Below are positions 2,309 through 27,495 of a stretch of 32,000 nt of DNA, piece after piece. Source of the stretch: Pyrobaculum aerophilum str. IM2. Lineage in GTDB: Archaea > Thermoproteota > Thermoprotei > Thermoproteales > Thermoproteaceae. The notes under the pieces are model-generated. The model saw nothing but the letters and a program-made list of their open reading frames with translations, made no database searches and was not told where the DNA came from. The stretch is taken from contig NC_003364.1 in NCBI RefSeq assembly GCF_000007225.1, positions 1,590,001 through 1,622,000 on the forward strand, read 5' to 3'. Made by a program: the position numbers and the translations under genes. Numbering within the stretch: the stretch's first letter is position 1; each line of letters opens with the position of its first letter.

Positions 2309-2833
2309 TTATCGCGGCGCTGTGGCTCTGCCCAGCGGCCTTTCGGCCAGGCGGCATATATACAGCTCACCCGCCTTGTCTAAAAACTGGCAACCAACAC
2401 ACGCCCTTGGGGTCTCAATTAACCCCTTGTCTATTAATTCCCCCACTATTTTGGCATATAGCATGTGGAGCAGAGCCCTCTCGGCATAGTTAAGCCGCGA
2501 GACGACAACTGACAGAGCATCGTATATGCTTGAGATCTCCTCCGCGGCCCTCCTCCCCGCCTCCGTCAGCCTTACCACCTTGACCCTCTTGTCCCTCCCC
2601 CTCGCCACCTCAACGTAGCCGAGCTTTATCATTGACTTTAACGACTCAGAGGCCGTTGAGATGGACACGGCGAGTTCTCTGGCTATTTGCGTCACTGATG
2701 CCTCACCCCGCTTGGCTAGATACAAGGCGATTTGCCCCTGGAGGGGGCTCAGCCCGTGTTTTTTACTCGCCTCTGCCAACAGTCTCCACAGGGCGTTAGA
2801 AAAGGCAAGGATTATATCTACTGTCCGCTCCAC
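2309..2833 (-). CDS. MarR-type winged-helix regulator with C-terminal CxxC...C extension
   Basis: The wHTH core is LSPLQGQIALYLAKRGEASVTQIARELAVSISTASESLKSMIKLGYV. The C-terminus is CVGCQFLDKAGELYICRL. The gene overlaps the upstream hemerythrin-like gene by 16 nt. Confidence 0.7.
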   Translation of the reverse strand: MERTVDIILAFSNALWRLLAEASKKHGLSPLQGQIALYLAKRGEASVTQIARELAVSISTASESLKSMIKLGYVEVARGRDKRVKVVRLTEAGRRAAEEISSIYDALSVVVSRLNYAERALLHMLYAKIVGELIDKGLIETPRACVGCQFLDKAGELYICRLAERPLGRATAPR

Positions 2834-3360
2834 GATTTCTTCAACTCCTCTAATTTGGCCATCCAGTAGTCATGTTGATTCTCCTTCTCAATGTCCTCCA
2901 CAGTCCGCGACGAGGATACCTCTGAGTAGCTTGATTCCAGCATGGGGAACAAGACGTTGTTCTCCTTCATTATGTGCTCCGATATGTGGTCTATGTACAA
3001 TTTGGCGTAGTCCGCCAGTTCCTTCAAGGCGTTTTGGTCGCCGTTTTTCCACGCAGTGTAGAGCTCCTCCATTACTCTAGCCAGATAGCGCCCGATGCCG
3101 TGTTCTGACGTCATGACGTATATAGGCGAGCCGAGGTAGGGAAAGCCCTGTCGATTAACCCCCTGGAACAGTATGTACTCCTCTATTGAGTGGTGGCATT
3201 GATCTACAAAACGCTGTATAAACTGAATTAAGAAGTGAACGGCCTCCGGGTCTGGAGATGGGCTGGACAGTACTTTATCCAACAGGGCCACTGCCTCTAG
3301 GATTTTATCGTGGTGTTCTCTAAGAGCCGACGTCACGTACTTCACTCTGACTTTAGGCAT
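2818..3360 (-). CDS. Hemerythrin-like (HHE cation-binding) domain protein
   Basis: The His/Glu ligand pattern REHHDK, CHHSIEE, SEHG and HISEHIMKEN fits a four-helix di-iron domain. Confidence 0.7.
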   Translation of the reverse strand: MPKVRVKYVTSALREHHDKILEAVALLDKVLSSPSPDPEAVHFLIQFIQRFVDQCHHSIEEYILFQGVNRQGFPYLGSPIYVMTSEHGIGRYLARVMEELYTAWKNGDQNALKELADYAKLYIDHISEHIMKENNVLFPMLESSYSEVSSSRTVEDIEKENQHDYWMAKLEELKKSWSGQ

Positions 3361-12082: not shown

Positions 12083-12370
12083 GATATCTATTTTAACTCC
12101 ACGTATATATTATGTAAATTTATGCAAAAATTTCATTTAATTAATTTTAATATTTCTTAATAAATTTCATATCAAAGAATGAGCATAAACTTAAATTAAT
12201 TGTATTATTTATGTTGTGCGCCGTGCATAATTATACGTCGCTGGATGGCTATTAGTACAAGTTAGGAAATTTCCCCAATAACACTGTTAATACACGTGGT
12301 GCTGTGATTACGACCAGGCAGTATATAATTATTATTATTCCGTTGCAATCAAAGCGTTATTTTTTAGCTA

Positions 12371-12392
12371 TTAACAAAGTTAATATTTAAAA
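12371..12392 (+). promoter_or_regulatory. Palindrome TTAACAAAGTTAA + TATA (TATTTAAAA) module of the Mn catalase promoter
   Basis: Nearly identical to the two modules in the phnC/phnD divergent region (ATTAACAA[A/T]GTTAATA[C]TTTAAAA). Confidence 0.65.
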
Positions 12393-12413
12393 ATGAATTT
12401 CGAATTGAGTCCT

Positions 12414-13310
12414 ATGTACCTAAGAATCGACAGGCTCCAAATAGAATTGCCTGCGCCGAAAGAGCCGGATCCAAACGCCGCGGCTGCTGTGCAGGAGCTT
12501 CTCGGCGGCAGATTTGGGGAAATGAATACTTTAATGACATATACATATCAATCCTTCAACTTTAGACTGCACAAAAACCCTGCGTTAAAACCCTTCCGCG
12601 ACTTGGTCGCAAATATCGCCACGGAGGAGCTGGGCCACATAGAGCTGGTTTCGGCTGTGGTAAATGCGCTATATGTGGGAGCCACAAAGCCCGGCCCGCC
12701 CGAGAGCGCGCCGCTAAAGCCGCTGAAAGACGCGAGAAATACCTACCACGCGACAATGACGGGGCTAACGGCTTTTCCATTCGACTCCCACGGCGCGCCG
12801 TGGAAAGGCGAATACATTTTCGTGAGCGGGAACTTAGTCCTAGACTTCTTATATAACTTCTTCCTAGAGGTAGGCGCCAGGCTTGTCAAAATTAGGGTTT
12901 ATGAAATGACCGACAACCCGGTGGCAAGAGAGATGATAGGCTATTTATTAGTAAGAGGCGGAGTACACGCCCTGGCCTATGGAAAAGCGCTTGAGGCATT
13001 AACTGGGGTTGAGGTGTGGAGAATGCTCCCAATTCCAAACATACCAAATAGTAAATTCCCCGAGGCTGCAAAATATGAGAAAATGGGCATTCACAGGACA
13101 TTGTACCGCTTCAGCCCCTCAGATTATAAAGATATTGAGAAGATCTGGCGCGGGACTCATCCAGAGGATGGACAACCTTTGCAAGTATACGACGGCCCGC
13201 CGCCGGGCGGCGAATATTTTGAACTCCCCGAGGTGCCTGAGGAGTTCGCCCCAGGCCTATCAGCTGACGACTTTAGAAGAATAGCAAAGCGACTTGGTAT
13301 AGAACTATAA
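12414..13310 (+). CDS. Manganese (non-heme, di-Mn) catalase
   Basis: Family signatures GGRFGEMNTLMTYTYQSFNF and ATEELGHIELV. Start reset to the ATG at 12414 (MYLRIDRLQ...) because the TATA box abuts the ATG at 12393. Confidence 0.85.
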   Translation: MYLRIDRLQIELPAPKEPDPNAAAAVQELLGGRFGEMNTLMTYTYQSFNFRLHKNPALKPFRDLVANIATEELGHIELVSAVVNALYVGATKPGPPESAPLKPLKDARNTYHATMTGLTAFPFDSHGAPWKGEYIFVSGNLVLDFLYNFFLEVGARLVKIRVYEMTDNPVAREMIGYLLVRGGVHALAYGKALEALTGVEVWRMLPIPNIPNSKFPEAAKYEKMGIHRTLYRFSPSDYKDIEKIWRGTHPEDGQPLQVYDGPPPGGEYFELPEVPEEFAPGLSADDFRRIAKRLGIEL

Positions 13311-13313
13311 TTT

Positions 13314-14045
13314 TTAACCTTTTAAAACTTTTTTTCTAAAAATATAACTAATTATATCTATTACTCCAACAAATAGAAATGTTAATAAAACTAGGGTAAA
13401 AACAGCATCGTATCGCAATAGGCTAATGTATTGGGAAATGTAATAGCCAATGCCTCCTGCGCCGACGAATCCGATTACTGCCGCTGTCCTTAAATTATAT
13501 TCAAATATAAACATTATATTTGTTATAAACTGTTTTCGTAACTTGAGATAGACTAAATGGGCCAATAGCGGAAGGCTGTGAGTAAAAGTCCTCATGACGT
13601 CTAAAAATTCTTTATCTACATTTTCAAAAGTCTCGTAAAATAATTTCGCTAAGTAGCCTGTGGTATATATCGTTAAGGCTAGCGCACCGGCCACAGGCCC
13701 GGGTCCTACCATTATTACGCCTATAACAGCGTATAAAAGAGATGGCACAGTTCTAATAAGCGACGTGAACATTCTCATCACTGACGCTATGGGCGCAGGC
13801 GCTATAGATGGCGTTGATAAGGCGGCTAGGGGGAAGGCTATTAAAGTGCCGGCGGCGGTGGCAAAGGCCGAGATATACATTGTGTCTAACAATGCGTATA
13901 AACCCTCAGCGACAACGTCTGTGTTAAAACCGCCTTCAGAAATCCACGTAATAAGATTAGACATAGCCCTGCTCCAATTCACTTGGTGGAAGCCTAATAA
14001 AAACGCAGAAATAATCACAAGAGCGGCCAGTAGTGGTATTACCAT
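13314..14045 (-). CDS. phnE: ABC transporter permease, PhnE-like (phosphonate/phosphite family)
   Basis: Polytopic membrane protein with the PhnE-type loop LRTAAVIGFVGAGGIGY. Overlaps the upstream ATPase gene. The symbol is a family-level call only. Confidence 0.7.
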   Translation of the reverse strand: MVIPLLAALVIISAFLLGFHQVNWSRAMSNLITWISEGGFNTDVVAEGLYALLDTMYISAFATAAGTLIAFPLAALSTPSIAPAPIASVMRMFTSLIRTVPSLLYAVIGVIMVGPGPVAGALALTIYTTGYLAKLFYETFENVDKEFLDVMRTFTHSLPLLAHLVYLKLRKQFITNIMFIFEYNLRTAAVIGFVGAGGIGYYISQYISLLRYDAVFTLVLLTFLFVGVIDIISYIFRKKVLKG

Positions 14046-14662
14046 ATTCTATAGGCCTTCCCCCCCTCTAGGCGGTAGCCCTTGTCGAAATATTTTATCG
14101 CTAAATCGACGTCGTGCAATACGGCGAGTACAGCGCCATTTTCCTTAAACGCTATTAGTAACTTTAGTACGTCCTCGGCTGTTTGTAAATCGAGGTTTGA
14201 GACAGGCTCATCCGCTAGAATTATTTCGGCGCCGTATATGAGCGCCCGGGCGACGGCGACTCTCTGCTTCTCCCCGCCGCTGAGATTGGCCACGGGCTCT
14301 CTTAACCTGTCCCCCAGGCCAACTTGGCGCAAAACCTGCACTGCCTTTTCTATTAAATGTCGCGGCCAGCGCCCGGTGAATATGCCCAATGGATTCCCGC
14401 TGGCTATTAACACGTTTTCTAAAACGGTAGCCCCCTCAATTAGGCCAATGCTCTGGGGGATGTAGCCAATACGTGAAACATGTCTTTCAATTATGCCAGA
14501 GGTTGGCTTTAAGATTCCGGCGCCAATTTTTAAAAGCGTCGTCTTGCCCGCCCCGCTTTTGCCTAAAAGTGCTACTGCCTCTCCTCTGTTTATTTCAAGA
14601 GTAACATCTCTAAGAATTGTCTTCCCATTTACGGCATACGACACATTTATGTAGCGGAGCAC
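14039..14662 (-). CDS. phnC: ABC transporter ATP-binding protein, PhnC-like
   Basis: Walker A GKSGAGKTT, signature LSGGEKQRVAVARAL, Walker B IILADEP. GTG start. Confidence 0.8.
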   Translation of the reverse strand: MLRYINVSYAVNGKTILRDVTLEINRGEAVALLGKSGAGKTTLLKIGAGILKPTSGIIERHVSRIGYIPQSIGLIEGATVLENVLIASGNPLGIFTGRWPRHLIEKAVQVLRQVGLGDRLREPVANLSGGEKQRVAVARALIYGAEIILADEPVSNLDLQTAEDVLKLLIAFKENGAVLAVLHDVDLAIKYFDKGYRLEGGKAYRIW

Positions 14663-14680
14663 ATGTGGTTTAGCATATTA

Positions 14681-14704
14681 CTTTAAAAGTATTAACATTG
14701 TTAA
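14681..14704 (-). promoter_or_regulatory. TATA (CTTTAAAAG) + palindrome TTAACATTGTTAA module for phnC
   Basis: Mirror image of 14757-14779. The palindrome begins 30 nt from the GTG at 14662. Confidence 0.65.
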
Positions 14705-14756
14705 TAGTTCTAAGTAGAAACGAGTTCTAACCTGAAGTTTTTTCTTCAAAAAAGCA

Positions 14757-14779
14757 TTAACAATGTTAATACTTTAAAA
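14757..14779 (+). promoter_or_regulatory. Palindrome TTAACAATGTTAA + TATA (TACTTTAAAA) module for phnD
   Basis: Mirror image of 14681-14704. The palindrome ends 30 nt from the ATG at 14799. Confidence 0.65.
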
Positions 14780-14798
14780 TTCAAAACGCCAATGGGGC

Positions 14799-15785
14799 AT
14801 GGCAATCGGAAAAAAGGCGTTAATAATAGCAGGAGTATTAGCCGTTGTCATAGTGGCGGCGGTATTGGCGTTACAGAATTACCCCGCGCAGACGCCGCAA
14901 TCCGGCGCCGCGCAGGGGAAGTTCCGTATTGTCGTTAACCCGGGGGTAGCTGAGAAAGTTAGCATCAAGGAGGCCCAGGAGCTGGAAAAGTATTTAGAGG
15001 ATTTGATGGGGATGGACGTGGAGCTGTCATATCCAGCTTCTTCAGCGGCTCTCATTGAGGCTTTGAGGTTTGGGCACGCAGACGCGGCCCTTGGGCCAGG
15101 CGCCTTAGTTGGAGCGCTGGCGGTCAGCTTAGCTAACGCAGAGCTCGTCGCTGTGGAGTACAGAGAGGTTATTATTGACGGAAAGAGGGAGACGGCTCCT
15201 TATTACTACAGTTATTTTATTGTGTTAAAAGAATCCCCCTATGTCTATATAGACGAGCTTAGAGGAAAGAGAGTTTGTTTTCCGTCTGAGACCTCAGTGT
15301 CGGGCTTTATAATGCCTCTAAAGGCCTTGGCGGATAGGGGCTATATAACGCCGGGGGAGGTTGAACGCCCGAGAGACTTGGCGTTGCAATTCTTCGGCGA
15401 CGTGGTATTTGGCGGGGGCTATGCCCAGTGCTGGGCCGCTTTAAAGGAGGGCAAGGTAGACGTAACTGTCATGGCGGGCGACGTGGCCGCCAGTTTATAC
15501 TGGGAGGCTATGAATAACAGCAGAGTTTTGAAATGGAAAGACGGGGGATATGCAATTGCCGGCCCCAACCCCAGCCATGTGGTATTAGTCAGAGGGGATC
15601 TGCCAGAGGATGTCAAAACTAAATTTGTAAATGCCATATTCGCCTTGAATAATAAGCCGGAGTTAATGAGGAATTACGTCTCTGCAATATTTGTAAGATT
15701 TGAGCGAAGAGATGTAAATGAACACCTAAAACCGTTAATTGACGCACTGGACTATTTAAAAATTAAAGAGTTCTATCTAAGGTAA
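14799..15785 (+). CDS. phnD: ABC transporter substrate-binding protein, PhnD-like, N-terminal membrane anchor
   Basis: Hydrophobic N-terminus. PhnD-type motifs FRIVVNPG..., SSAALIEALRFGHADAA and SVSGFIMP. Confidence 0.7.
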   Translation: MAIGKKALIIAGVLAVVIVAAVLALQNYPAQTPQSGAAQGKFRIVVNPGVAEKVSIKEAQELEKYLEDLMGMDVELSYPASSAALIEALRFGHADAALGPGALVGALAVSLANAELVAVEYREVIIDGKRETAPYYYSYFIVLKESPYVYIDELRGKRVCFPSETSVSGFIMPLKALADRGYITPGEVERPRDLALQFFGDVVFGGGYAQCWAALKEGKVDVTVMAGDVAASLYWEAMNNSRVLKWKDGGYAIAGPNPSHVVLVRGDLPEDVKTKFVNAIFALNNKPELMRNYVSAIFVRFERRDVNEHLKPLIDALDYLKIKEFYLR

Positions 15786-15820: not shown

Positions 15821-16312
15821 ATGGCCGAATTCATAGAACCTGTCGATAAACAAAAGATTATAAATATGTTACTATCGGCATATGCAGACGAGTGGATTGC
15901 CGCCTACTATTATACTCTAACCGCCTATGCCATTAAAGGCCCTCTATCGGAAGAGGTCGCGGAGCATTTCCTAGAGGAGGCTAAGGAGGAGCTGGAAAAA
16001 CACGCGAGGCTTATTGCAGATAGACTACAAGACTTCGACATAGATCCCCCCAGAGACTTTACAAAACTGTGGGAGATCTCAGGCTGTAAATATCCGCCTA
16101 TTCCCAACGATCCCTACGACATAGATGGGTGGATAGCCGCGGCAGTGAAGGCGGAGGAATGTGCCATAAGAGCCTATAAGGAGCTATATCAATACACTCA
16201 CGGCAGAGATCCTGTAACAGAGGAGTTGGCAGAGGAGATCTTGAGAGATGAGGTTAAACACCGCACAGACTTGATAAATCTCCTTACAAAAGAGGGGGCG
16301 AAGAGGCTGTAA
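15821..16312 (+). CDS. Ferritin-like di-iron carboxylate protein (Dps-like/bacterioferritin-like)
   Basis: E...ExxH...E...ExxH pattern (ADEW, ELEKH, AEEC, EVKH) in a four-helix bundle. Confidence 0.6.
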   Translation: MAEFIEPVDKQKIINMLLSAYADEWIAAYYYTLTAYAIKGPLSEEVAEHFLEEAKEELEKHARLIADRLQDFDIDPPRDFTKLWEISGCKYPPIPNDPYDIDGWIAAAVKAEECAIRAYKELYQYTHGRDPVTEELAEEILRDEVKHRTDLINLLTKEGAKRL

Positions 16313-27084: not shown

Positions 27085-27090
27085 AGACGT

Positions 27091-27261
27091 CCCCTATCCC
27101 CCCCGGGCGCCCCGGGGGACACGGGGCCCCGGATCGCCAGAGGCTTCCGGGGCGGGCCGCGCCCGGGGCGTCGGCAACCCCCTCGGCGGGCTCTCCCCGC
27201 CTTCGGCCCGCGCGCCAGGGCCGCCCCGCCCTGCCCGGGGCGGGGTGGGGGGCGTAGGGGG
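27091..27261. other. GC-rich structured element 1 (candidate ncRNA or 5' leader; about 87% GC)
   Basis: My hand count gave 139 G+C in 27101-27260. The termini can pair (CCCCT/AGGGG plus CCCCCC/GGGGGG). G-quadruplex-type tract GGGGCGGGGTGGGGGGCGTAGGGGG at 27237-27261. The 61-bp core 27194-27254 is homologous to 28376-28436. Confidence 0.4.
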
Positions 27262-27495
27262 ACTCCATGTCTCTAATTCAACTGGTATTTAACATTGATT
27301 AACTGTGGGGGTGGCTGTTGTTCAAGGCTAGAACTGTGCCGTGTGCCGTCGGCGTTGTGGACAGTTTTGAATAAGAGCGGTACCGGATAGGTGTCTTTTG
27401 CCGTTCAAAAGAGGCGCTTCCCGCGTGGCTGGCGTTGTAGGCGGCTTTGAACAAAGACGGGGCGGAAGCCGCCTTGCTCAGCAATTTGCCAGTCG

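Follow-up and report, generated by a model that had tools for sequence, protein, structure and literature searches.

Introduction

Bacterial Fur, PerR and Zur repressors bind boxes such as TGATAATnATTATCA and TTATAATnATTATAA, known from the work of the Helmann laboratory, and Baichoo and Helmann are said to have described in 2002 the 15-bp 7-1-7 architecture of these boxes. In Crenarchaeota, the regulation of metal homeostasis and oxidative stress has barely been mapped, and the one PerR studied there has no defined DNA motif. This protein, SisPerR of Saccharolobus islandicus, is the only crenarchaeal Fur-family regulator that has been studied in vivo (PMC11724291). It represses dps, mntH, nirD and vit1, and these genes are de-repressed by H2O2 (PMC11724291).

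We analysed a 32,000-nt window of the Pyrobaculum aerophilum genome, in which a palindrome had been noticed next to the TATA boxes of a manganese catalase gene and of a divergently transcribed PhnCDE-like ABC importer. The comparison across genomes indicates that this palindrome, a predicted operator, is a genuine and evolutionarily conserved switch site, which ties the catalase and importer genes to iron/zinc transporters in heat-loving Pyrobaculum. The candidate regulon resembles that of SisPerR (PMC11724291) in its theme, metal transporters together with oxidative defence, and the two Fur-family proteins share an unusual pattern of two lone cysteines. The two systems differ: the study of SisPerR did not define a motif for its binding and placed ROS-scavenging enzymes outside its regulon (PMC11724291), whereas Mn catalase is a core member of the candidate regulon here. 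The gene sets do not overlap, being MntH, Dps, VIT1 and NirD for SisPerR (PMC11724291) and, as predicted here, FeoB, a ZIP transporter, the PhnCDE-like importer and an MscS-like channel. The motif string was not found in the literature that we searched. Two further observations are new: a second dyad, TAGAA-N5-TTCTA, and a PhnD-like subfamily with an altered ligand motif.

Results and discussion

Palindromic sites at the catalase and phn promoters

The 15-base palindrome ATTAACAnTGTTAAT (core TTAAC-N3-GTTAA) was read in three promoters of the window, and each copy abuts a TATA box. At the Mn catalase gene (12414-13310, + strand; Pfam PF05067, E 5e-78), the proximal copy ATTAACAAAGTTAAT (12370-12384) covers the BRE position and lies directly 5' of the TATA box ATTTAAAAA (12385-12393, + strand), which is found 21-29 nt 5' of the ATG at 12414. 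Because all orthologues begin at the corresponding MY... codon and align from this methionine, ATG 12414 was taken as the start rather than the ATG at 12393 chosen by the ORF finder, which falls inside the TATA box. The spacing between TATA box and ATG would fit a leaderless transcript. The proximal copy is located at -44 from the ATG in eight of nine Mn catalase orthologues (one genome each). A distal copy, AATAACACTGTTAAT (12277-12291; one mismatch; 19.9 bits in a position weight matrix, PWM), lies 93 bp 5' of the proximal one; it is the fourth copy in the window and was absent from the original prediction. The catalase promoters of relatives likewise contain one or two additional dyads of the form TTAAC-N3-GTTAA, situated near -79 and -119.

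The phn intergenic region contains two perfect 7-1-7 palindromes, each scoring 27.1 bits and each kept at the orthologous promoters. On the phnC side, ATTAACATTGTTAAT (14691-14705) adjoins the TATA box CTTTTAAAGT (14681-14690, - strand); on the phnD side, ATTAACAATGTTAAT (14756-14770) is directly followed by the TATA box ACTTTAAAAT (14771-14780, + strand), and the TATA consensus over 23 promoters of the phnD-promoter class is gCTTaAAAAT. The two modules are reverse complements of each other, identical at 23 of 25 positions and separated by 50 bp, and the near-perfect inverted repeat described in the original prediction is thus real. The same is true of the predicted constant arrangement of palindrome, TATA box and start codon: from the last base of the palindrome to the start codon there are 30 nt at the catalase gene (ATG 12414), 29 nt at phnD (ATG 14799) and 29 nt at phnC (GTG 14662). 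The perfect dyad ATTAAC-N3-GTTAAT is common to all three copies. A weaker relative that had been proposed at 27288-27302 scored 8.5 bits, a value equalled or exceeded at 159 genome positions and therefore at chance level; with such a background score, its link to the same motif was not upheld.

The palindrome is rare in the genome and conserved at orthologous promoters

When one mismatch was allowed, six occurrences of TTAACNNNGTTAA were counted in the window, where 1.14 would be expected, and six was reached in none of 100 shuffles. In the 2.22-Mb P. aerophilum genome, the 15-mer has four exact copies (0.006 expected), the sites at which ATTAACA-n-TGTTAAT is perfect, and five copies with one mismatch (0.27 expected), an excess of about 650-fold and about 20-fold, respectively. 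The PWM, built from 46 sites, is invariant at A5, C6, G10 and T11, giving the core AAC-N3-GTT; scanning the 2.22 Mb with it yielded just 10 sites of at least 19 bits, followed by a gap in the scores. The A/T-rich sequence adjoining TATA boxes could in principle be a coincidence or simply the consensus of strong promoters in general, and a genome-wide motif search had been suggested. The motif proved rare, and hence is no generic consensus; given the two excesses, the ten high-scoring sites in all and the retention of the motif at orthologous genes in three genera, we consider the probability of such an origin negligible.

The motif was found in 19 of 27 Thermoproteaceae genomes, with 0-1 occurrence per genome for a reversed-pattern control. 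It lies 5' of feoB orthologues in 11 genomes, of ZIP genes in 10, of phnC/phnD in at least seven, of genes for an MscS-like channel in seven and of Mn catalase genes in eight of nine genomes. The module is therefore kept upstream of catalase and phnC/phnD orthologues, and this phylogenetic footprinting supports the earlier proposal of a single dimeric regulator acting on both Mn catalase and the PhnCDE-like importer. It also widens the proposed set by the ZIP transporter, FeoB and the MscS-like channel. The candidate regulon thus comprises FeoB, ZIP, PhnCDE-like and Mn catalase genes, with a hemerythrin/RIC-like gene in some genomes; the latter carries the operator in only three genomes, all of a sister genus. 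In P. aerophilum, the regulon would consist of six transcription units: Mn catalase (with two sites), phnC-phnE, phnD, the ZIP-type transporter, feoB and the MscS-like channel. A frameshift in the feoB of this species counts against the proposal. An operator that is conserved and so clearly delimited, with a candidate regulon of six units, offers a direct handle on the regulator.

Several extensions were considered. The ferritin/DPS-like gene 3' of phnD (15821-16312) was not counted as a regulon member; it has its own TATA box and no palindrome, and in relatives it does not neighbour phnD. Another family of the order also shows a numerical excess of the 15-mer; the matches there fall within coding sequence, away from any orthologue of a regulon gene, indicating that the regulon is family-restricted. 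An Rfam search of the MscS-like and feoB intergenic regions found nothing.

The position of the palindrome favours a repressor operator

Catalase, phn and ZIP promoters have the palindrome immediately 5' of the TATA box. Eleven feoB promoters have it immediately 3' of the TATA box and 5-7 nt from the start codon, and in seven MscS-like promoters it is 30-45 bp 5' of the TATA box. This variation in position, with the feoB site between TATA box and start, favours a repressor operator and argues against a special BRE. Sites directly upstream and directly downstream of TATA are both repressive in archaeal promoters. If the module were instead a palindromic core-promoter variant of the BRE, read by an alternative TFB/TBP and involving no repressor, this would account for its exact coincidence with the BRE position at the catalase, phn and ZIP genes and for the agreement of its proximal half-site, GTTAAT, with the BRE consensus of archaea, RNWAAW. 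The position is not fixed, however, being downstream of TATA at feoB and far upstream at the MscS-like genes; additional copies occur 35-95 bp further upstream at catalase promoters, and a BRE does not require dyad symmetry. We therefore regard a BRE variant as very improbable, and the specialised TFB/TBP context offered in the original prediction is not supported, given the feoB and MscS-like sites.

For a repressor, the positions suggest two modes of action. The site abuts the TATA box and covers the BRE at the catalase, phn and ZIP genes, where the bound protein would exclude TFB/TBP; at feoB, the protein bound between TATA box and start codon would block RNA polymerase. Its release from DNA upon metal shortage and/or peroxide stress would switch on the regulon genes together. 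As the same site is used at two promoter positions, repression can be compared between them. The Mn catalase of P. calidifontis is reportedly induced under aerobic conditions, and the operator is a candidate mechanism for the aerobic induction of Pyrobaculum Mn catalase.

A Fur/PerR homologue is the best candidate for the regulator

The evidence makes it rather probable, in our judgement, that a single dimeric repressor uses ATTAACAnTGTTAAT as its operator and governs a small metal-homeostasis and peroxide-defence regulon of Thermoproteaceae, and that this regulator is most likely a Fur-family protein. The best candidate is the single Fur/PerR homologue conserved throughout the family, an assignment based on regulon content, operator architecture and the exclusion of DtxR. 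P. aerophilum has one Fur-family gene, whose PerR-like product is PAE2309 in the naming of PMC3388794. A Fur homologue was detected in 24 of 27 family genomes; the three genomes with no match are drafts (76-95% complete) in which operator copies or regulon genes are present, and so widespread a gene has little power to discriminate. The best NCBIfam matches of the protein are PerR models, all below cut-off, and the Pyrobaculum protein has two lone Cys residues and no CxxC.

The operator has a Fur-type architecture, a 7-1-7 inverted repeat abutting the TATA box or covering the start region. Like the bacterial Fur, PerR and Zur boxes, it is a 15-bp repeat over the core promoter, associated with metal uptake and catalase genes and, as proposed here, acting by occlusion. 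It differs from them in its half-site, ATTAACA, in the archaeal TBP/TFB promoter and in that no autoregulatory copy was found: none of 24 genomes had the palindrome upstream of fur, and the usual clue of autoregulation is missing. The half-site TTAACA is also unlike the bacterial Fur/PerR boxes TGATAAT, TTATAAT and TCGTAAT, and there is no TAAT-n-ATTA core. Among SisPerR-type targets, a DPS-like gene was inspected in a family that is less closely related but belongs to the same class; its two loci showed a different AT-rich palindrome and were uninformative.

The operator occurs in a single family, whereas Fur homologues are distributed much more widely, implying that either the specificity has drifted or another, family-specific factor is responsible. 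A different Thermoproteaceae-specific protein might thus act on the same operator and regulon; the ArsR/SmtB, MarR and TrmB types are examples. ArsR/SmtB-type operators have the form TGAACA..TGTTCA, to which AACA-n-TGTT is closer than to Fur boxes, and fur itself has no autoregulatory site. No candidate gene is consistently linked to the regulon genes, though; the MarR-like gene at 2309-2833 of the window, which shares its operon with a hemerythrin/RIC-like gene, occurs in only three genomes and was rejected as a general regulator. Metal uptake combined with catalase is the classical content of Fur/PerR regulons, and of the classical metalloregulators P. aerophilum retains only Fur. We regard a non-Fur regulator as less probable.

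A DtxR-family protein (MntR/FetR/ZntR type), predicted to control archaeal FeoB, ZIP and NRAMP regulons, had also to be considered. Leyn and Rodionov reportedly described in 2015 archaeal regulons of this family (FetR/MntR/ZntR) with a content similar to that found here; the points in common are the target gene families (FeoB, ZIP, NRAMP) and palindromic promoter operators. Streptococcal DtxR-type regulators recognise AATTAAC-type half-sites, and a short DtxR-family protein is encoded in 19 of 27 Thermoproteaceae genomes. P. aerophilum and P. islandicum, however, lack the gene and yet have kept perfect operators at conserved promoters. A profile search found Fe_dep_repr_C (PF02742) absent from both species, and tblastn with the DtxR proteins of five relatives gave no match below E 0.006. 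The DtxR gene of relatives lies behind an NRAMP gene with its own canonical DtxR-like palindrome, TTAGCCTAGGCTAA (TTAGG..CCTAA type), which is different in sequence, and this NRAMP promoter has neither dyad of our analysis. The absence from two species and the different box at NRAMP exclude DtxR as the regulator, to which we assign only a minute probability. Fur/PerR remains our preferred candidate.

The PhnCDE-like importer is most likely a metal transporter

The importer is encoded by genes for a PhnE-like permease (13314-14045, - strand; PF00528), a PhnC-like ATPase with a GTG start at 14662 (14039-14662, - strand; PF00005) and a PhnD-family substrate-binding protein of the 'GGY...PSH' subfamily (14799-15785, + strand; PF12974, E 4e-32; AF2 pLDDT 94). 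All three miss the equivalog cut-offs: PhnE scores 171 against 216.7 bits (TIGR01097), PhnC 151 against 266 bits (TIGR02315) and PhnD 93 against 261 bits, the last protein passing only the broad subfamily model TIGR01098 (116 against 112 bits). In a Foldseek search with the AF2 model, the nearest folds were ArrX, PtxB, AioX and PhnD (E 1e-18 to 1e-15), with transferrin lobes next. The ligand motif of PhnD/PtxB is STS-H (PMC5700983). Here, S166-[V/T]-S168 is kept, the ligand His is replaced by an invariant Tyr (GGY) and the capping Tyr of PtxB by an invariant His (PSH). With the oxyanion binders PhnD, PtxB, HtxB, ArrX and AioX (PF12974; PMC5700983), it has in common the fold, the PhnC and PhnE partners and the S-x-S anion-binding helix; the two substitutions and the scores below all equivalog cut-offs set it apart, as do a promoter in a metal/peroxide regulon and subfamily neighbours that are DtxR or TonB-ExbBD genes and not phosphorus genes.

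The subfamily, with the signature YY ... S-x-S ... GGY ... P(S/T)H, is widespread in archaea, Chloroflexota, Planctomycetota and Acidobacteriota. Among its best 80 loci, 25 are clustered with DtxR or TonB-ExbBD genes: a divergent DtxR/IdeR gene is present in 13 and a TonB-dependent receptor gene in 12, with ExbB and TonB also in the cluster in seven and ExbD in six. These bacterial clusters point to metal uptake. In the P. aerophilum genome, no match to PhnJ was found, and the best score for phosphonatase (TIGR01422) was 29 bits against a cut-off of 220. Together with the His-to-Tyr change and the neighbourhoods, this strengthens the doubt already voiced about phosphonate as the substrate and suggests that the importer carries a metal instead. 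Its fold and S-x-S helix speak against a metal importer, being those of the oxyanion binders ArrX, PtxB and AioX; the substrate is most likely a metal or a metal-oxyanion species, and the metal is probably iron. On the strength of the regulon and of the gene neighbourhoods in distant bacteria, the widespread annotation "phosphonate ABC transporter" is re-assigned here to probable metal uptake, which affects hundreds of genomes, and the subfamily may represent a new class of iron-binding proteins.

The similarity to transferrin was followed up. The PhnD-like protein scored 15 bits with PF00405 (threshold 20.3), and four of six orthologues matched at E <=1 (best 7e-4). The top PDB match of the profile was melanotransferrin, which covered only residues 135-190, and the similarity overall was confined to residues about 132-190, no transferrin being found in the C-terminal half. 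Compared by eye with the human sequence, GGY may correspond to transferrin Tyr188 and PSH to His249; the Asp63 position, also judged by eye, is not conserved. Membership of the transferrin family was rejected in view of the sub-threshold score, the partial coverage and an incomplete set of the Asp/Tyr/Tyr/His iron ligands. A bolder reading, which we put forward as speculative and rather unlikely, is that the subfamily uses tyrosinate and histidine ligands to bind a metal, ferric iron or another, along with an oxyanion. It would then be a prokaryotic iron importer of transferrin-like type, perhaps the closest relative that the transferrin lobe has among prokaryotes, and in Pyrobaculum it would be switched on together with Mn catalase by an archaeal PerR at ATTAACAnTGTTAAT. 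If this were true, ATTAACAnTGTTAAT would be the first operator defined for any crenarchaeal Fur-family protein.

A second dyad at the ZIP and phn promoters

The second dyad, TAGAAACGAGTTCTA (TAGAA-N5-TTCTA; 14715-14729), is located 9 nt from the phnC-side operator and might be the site of a further factor at the ZIP and phn promoters. It is one of only two exact TAGAA-N5-TTCTA copies in the P. aerophilum genome, and no such dyad was found in the feoB, MscS-like or catalase promoters. With at most one mismatch allowed, 16 of 20 ZIP/phn promoters carry it, and in 10 of these it lies 9 nt upstream of the operator.

A palindrome precedes the catalase, phnC and phnD genes

The original prediction placed the same palindrome-plus-TATA module at three promoters, and reading of the sequence bore out all three. 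The catalase palindrome (window 12370-12384; ATTAACAAAGTTAAT) is followed by ATTTAAAAA. On the phnC side, ATTAACATTGTTAAT occupies 14691-14705, with the TATA box at 14681-14690 on the minus strand; on the phnD side, ATTAACAATGTTAAT at 14756-14770 is followed by ACTTTAAAAT. The dyad ATTAAC-N3-GTTAAT is common to the three copies, and the phn pair shows perfect 7-1-7 symmetry. As modules that include the TATA box, the two phn copies match each other as reverse complements at 23 of 25 positions and are spaced 50 bp apart. The window holds a fourth copy, overlooked in the prediction, at 12277-12291; it precedes the catalase site by 93 bp. Another palindrome, GGAAATTTCC (12265-12274), lies 3 bp from this distal copy.

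The catalase start codon was assigned to ATG 12414, as every orthologue aligns from this MY... codon; the ORF-finder's start, ATG 12393, falls within the TATA box and was rejected. The distance from the last palindrome base to the start codon is then 29-30 nt for catalase, phnD (ATG 14799) and phnC (GTG 14662). This spacing is consistent with leaderless transcripts; the transcription starts are predicted ones. In all species (L055-L062), a TTCGA(A/G) motif is conserved in the TATA-ATG interval (window 12394-12413), ~10-20 nt before the catalase start codon; its role may be that of an initiator-region element or of an additional binding site.

The palindrome is rare in the genome

Within the window, six matches to TTAACNNNGTTAA with at most one mismatch were found, against 1.14 expected. 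The whole P. aerophilum genome (one contig of 2,222,430 bp, 51% G+C) contained four exact copies of the 15-mer (0.006 expected) and five one-mismatch copies (0.27 expected). When it was scanned with a position weight matrix from 46 sites, 10 positions reached at least 19 bits, followed by a gap. This genome-wide search, which the prediction had proposed, indicated that the palindrome is much rarer than a promoter consensus. A "weaker relative" predicted at 27288-27302 scored only 8.5 bits, was matched or beaten at 159 genome positions and was dropped; it adjoins an extremely G+C-rich stretch with GGGGC/CCCGG runs (27090-27270).

Perfect copies outside the window were located at 320749, followed by ACTTAAAAAT and 30 nt ahead of the ATG of a ZIP/ZupT-like gene (a 262-aa membrane protein), and at 1052524, upstream of an MscS-like gene whose 286-aa product has mechanosensitive-channel transmembrane helices. 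At feoB, a copy with one mismatch (183339) separates the TATA box from the start codon. Another one-mismatch copy, ATTAACAATGTAAAT (68688-68702, L122; 22.4 bits), is followed after 58 bp by a 185-aa ORF with no Pfam match; the surroundings appear CRISPR/cas-associated. Two high-scoring sites lie within coding sequences, one in feoB (182555) and one at 1884283, the latter probably by chance.

The P. aerophilum feoB gene itself (G000:C1:181627-183374, L121:128-1875, minus strand) consists of two ORFs in different frames, one of 106 aa for the G domain and one of 460 aa for the membrane part, whereas its relatives have a single ORF of ~500 aa. The break falls at the run GCCCCCACGTTTTAAAA. It marks a frameshift pseudogene or else a homopolymer slip, and the operator before the gene is intact. 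In the ZIP gene, an operator-like sequence, [A/G]TAAC[A/T]GTGTTAAT, occurs ~85 bp into the coding sequence (G000:C1:320834-320848) and in the same codons of three orthologues (L010, L019, L024). These codons specify a peptide that is itself conserved, G-(I/L/V)-T-V-L-I-G; constraint on the protein may account for the sequence, and dual use is possible.

The palindrome is conserved in Thermoproteaceae

Of the 27 family genomes, 19 contained the 15-mer with at most one mismatch, and a reversed-pattern control gave 0-1 match per genome. About 50 of these sites, from relatives that are non-independent samples, were fetched; they lay upstream of orthologous genes, namely feoB in 11 genomes, ZIP-like in 10 and MscS-like in 7. 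The prediction had named conservation upstream of orthologues as a check, and the palindrome was indeed kept at phnC/phnD orthologues in at least 7 genomes and, in a separate search, at 8 of 9 catalase orthologues. In the latter, TTAAC-N3-GTTAA lies at −44 from the ATG, directly before the TATA box, and the relatives' promoters carry one or two more dyads near −79 and −119. The exception is the closest catalase orthologue (95% identical; L055, G012:C6), whose gene is intact and whose promoter palindrome has been lost; this natural operator-less variant would be of use in comparisons. In three genomes of the sister genus, a hemerythrin/RIC-like gene likewise has the core palindrome upstream.

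In a count at order and class level, the pattern was raised in a second family, where the matches lay in coding DNA and without the regulon genes. No palindrome was found at the related phnD-like genes of Sulfolobales, Desulfurococcales and Nitrosocaldus MAGs. Taken together, the distribution of matches indicates that the putative operator is specific to Thermoproteaceae.

The position of the palindrome suggests a repressor operator

We aligned 43 promoters on the palindrome and found three arrangements. In the first (ZIP, phnC, phnD, catalase and a handful of further promoters), gCTTaAAAAT comes straight after the palindrome, whose proximal half-site thus falls at the BRE position, and the start codon is ~28 nt past the palindrome. 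In the second (feoB), a TATA box (TTTTTAT or TTTAAAT) directly precedes the palindrome, and the start codon follows 5-7 nt on. In the third (MscS-like), the palindrome is 30-45 bp upstream of a TATA-like box and adjoins a conserved GC-rich inverted repeat, GTGTTAGC-N8-GCTAACAC. This repeat (G000:C1:1052560-1052595, L120:1065-1092) lies 25 bp away from the operator, in the gap that separates the MscS-like gene from the AAA-ATPase gene; it occurs at the same place in six relatives (G001, G002, G004, G005, G006 and G013) and had no match in Rfam. Its arms look like everted operator half-sites.

The BRE position in the first arrangement would suit a BRE variant, or the specialised TFB/TBP context that the prediction offered as an option. 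Both readings are contradicted by the finding that the same palindrome occurs upstream of, downstream of and distant from the TATA box, and the BRE variant was rejected. Archaeal repressors act at sites over the BRE or the initiation region. Given this and the variable position, we read the palindrome as the operator of one dimeric repressor, with repression itself deduced from promoter layout. That the palindrome is an operator defining a regulon is very probable.

A second dyad marks the ZIP and phn promoters

Upstream of the palindrome, ZIP and phn promoters, along with three others, carry another dyad, TAGAA-N5-TTCTA. With at most one mismatch, it occurred in 16 of 20 ZIP/phn promoters, at 9 nt from the palindrome in 10, at 15 nt in 4 and further away in 2; it was absent from the feoB, MscS-like and catalase promoters of the aligned set. 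Only two exact copies exist in the P. aerophilum genome, one of them between the phn operators (window 14715-14729). This distribution indicates a further, putative factor whose action is confined to ZIP and phn.

A Fur-family protein is the candidate regulator

A DtxR-family protein was found in 19 of 27 family genomes, and P. aerophilum and P. islandicum were without one. No DtxR-type metal-binding domain was found in P. aerophilum, and tblastn with the DtxR proteins of five relatives found nothing in either species. In five relatives (G001, G007, G005, G002 and G024; L129-L133), the 138-aa DtxR is encoded after NRAMP (MntH) in a two-gene operon. In the operon's promoter, the TATA box is immediately preceded by a DtxR-like palindrome (CTTTTTAGCCTAGGGAAAAA or TTAGCCTAGGCTAA), and neither the TTAAC-N3-GTTAA nor the TAGAA-N5-TTCTA dyad is present. 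DtxR was thus excluded, as the gene is missing from two species and the box of the relatives is a different palindrome. A MarR-like regulator in the window (174 aa), which overlaps a hemerythrin/RIC-like di-iron protein (180 aa) in one operon (2309-3360, minus strand), was rejected since it is present in three genomes only (G000, G001 and G006).

This leaves, among classical metalloregulators, the single Fur-family protein of P. aerophilum, whose gene was named PAE2309 in a Pyrobaculum sRNA paper (PMC3388794). Such a protein is encoded by 24 of the 27 genomes. NCBIfam PerR models match the P. aerophilum protein best, each short of its cut-off, and the protein contains two lone cysteines and no CxxC pairs. 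This pattern matches the description of PerR from Saccharolobus islandicus (SisPerR), which is alone among crenarchaeal Fur homologues in having been studied in vivo; it responds to H2O2 and represses dps, mntH, nirD and vit1 (PMC11724291). No motif was defined for SisPerR, and the authors' attempts to obtain active protein failed, also for that of Thermoproteus tenax (PMC11724291). The 7-1-7 operator and a regulon of metal importers and catalase fit a Fur/PerR regulator; however, the half-site differs from those of Fur and PerR boxes in bacteria, the motif is restricted to one family, and no palindrome copy was found upstream of fur in the 24 genomes. On balance, we slightly favour the Fur-family protein as the candidate regulator.

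The PhnCDE-like importer probably takes up a metal

The prediction had questioned phosphonate as the substrate, and several results sustained this doubt. The PhnD-, PhnC- and PhnE-like proteins all score below equivalog cut-offs, and neither the C-P lyase PhnJ nor a phosphonatase was found in the genome. In PtxB and PhnD, ligand residues are contributed by an 'STS-H' motif and by two tyrosines, one at the hinge and one capping (PMC5700983). The PhnD-like protein retains the S-x-S helix and hinge Tyr-Tyr, while an invariant Tyr (GGY) takes the place of the His and an invariant His (PSH) that of the capping Tyr. By its sequence, this GGY/PSH signature marks a distinct PhnD-like subfamily.

Of 1.84 billion representatives, 517 matched (E ≤0.001), and the subfamily occupied 271 loci in a species-genome collection, from Thermoproteales, Sulfolobales, Desulfurococcales, Nitrososphaeria, Chloroflexota, Planctomycetota and Acidobacteriota. 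Among the best 80 of these 271 loci, a divergent DtxR/IdeR-type gene was directly upstream in 13, a TonB-dependent receptor was nearby in 12, ExbB and TonB were within the cluster in 7 and ExbD in 6, these counts covering GGY/PSH loci only; no phosphorus-metabolism family was among the recurrent neighbours. Both the Pyrobaculum regulon and these bacterial neighbourhoods suggest that the importer takes up metal, probably iron.

The AF2 model of the PhnD-like protein (pLDDT 94) was closest to the solved folds of ArrX, PtxB, AioX, PhnD and HtxB; transferrin lobes came immediately after these. When six orthologues were combined into a profile, melanotransferrin was the top PDB match, over residues 135-190 only; PF00405 was below threshold, and the C-terminal half alone gave no transferrin match. 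A transferrin-like Tyr/Tyr/His site is attractive but unconfirmed.

The annotation of this importer subfamily is probably wrong. The palindrome was not found in the literature searched, the incomplete coverage of which makes an earlier description possible. As it stands, an undescribed operator in a Fur/PerR-like metal/peroxide regulon, the two-dyad promoter architecture and the probably misannotated importer subfamily appear to be new.

The DPS-like/ferritin-like gene after phnD (window 15821-16312; NCBIfam Arch_DPS, 95 bits, below cut-off) was not included, as it has its own TATA box and no palindrome and is not beside phnD in relatives. Together with the catalase and importer genes, it makes up a local oxidative-stress/metal gene cluster.
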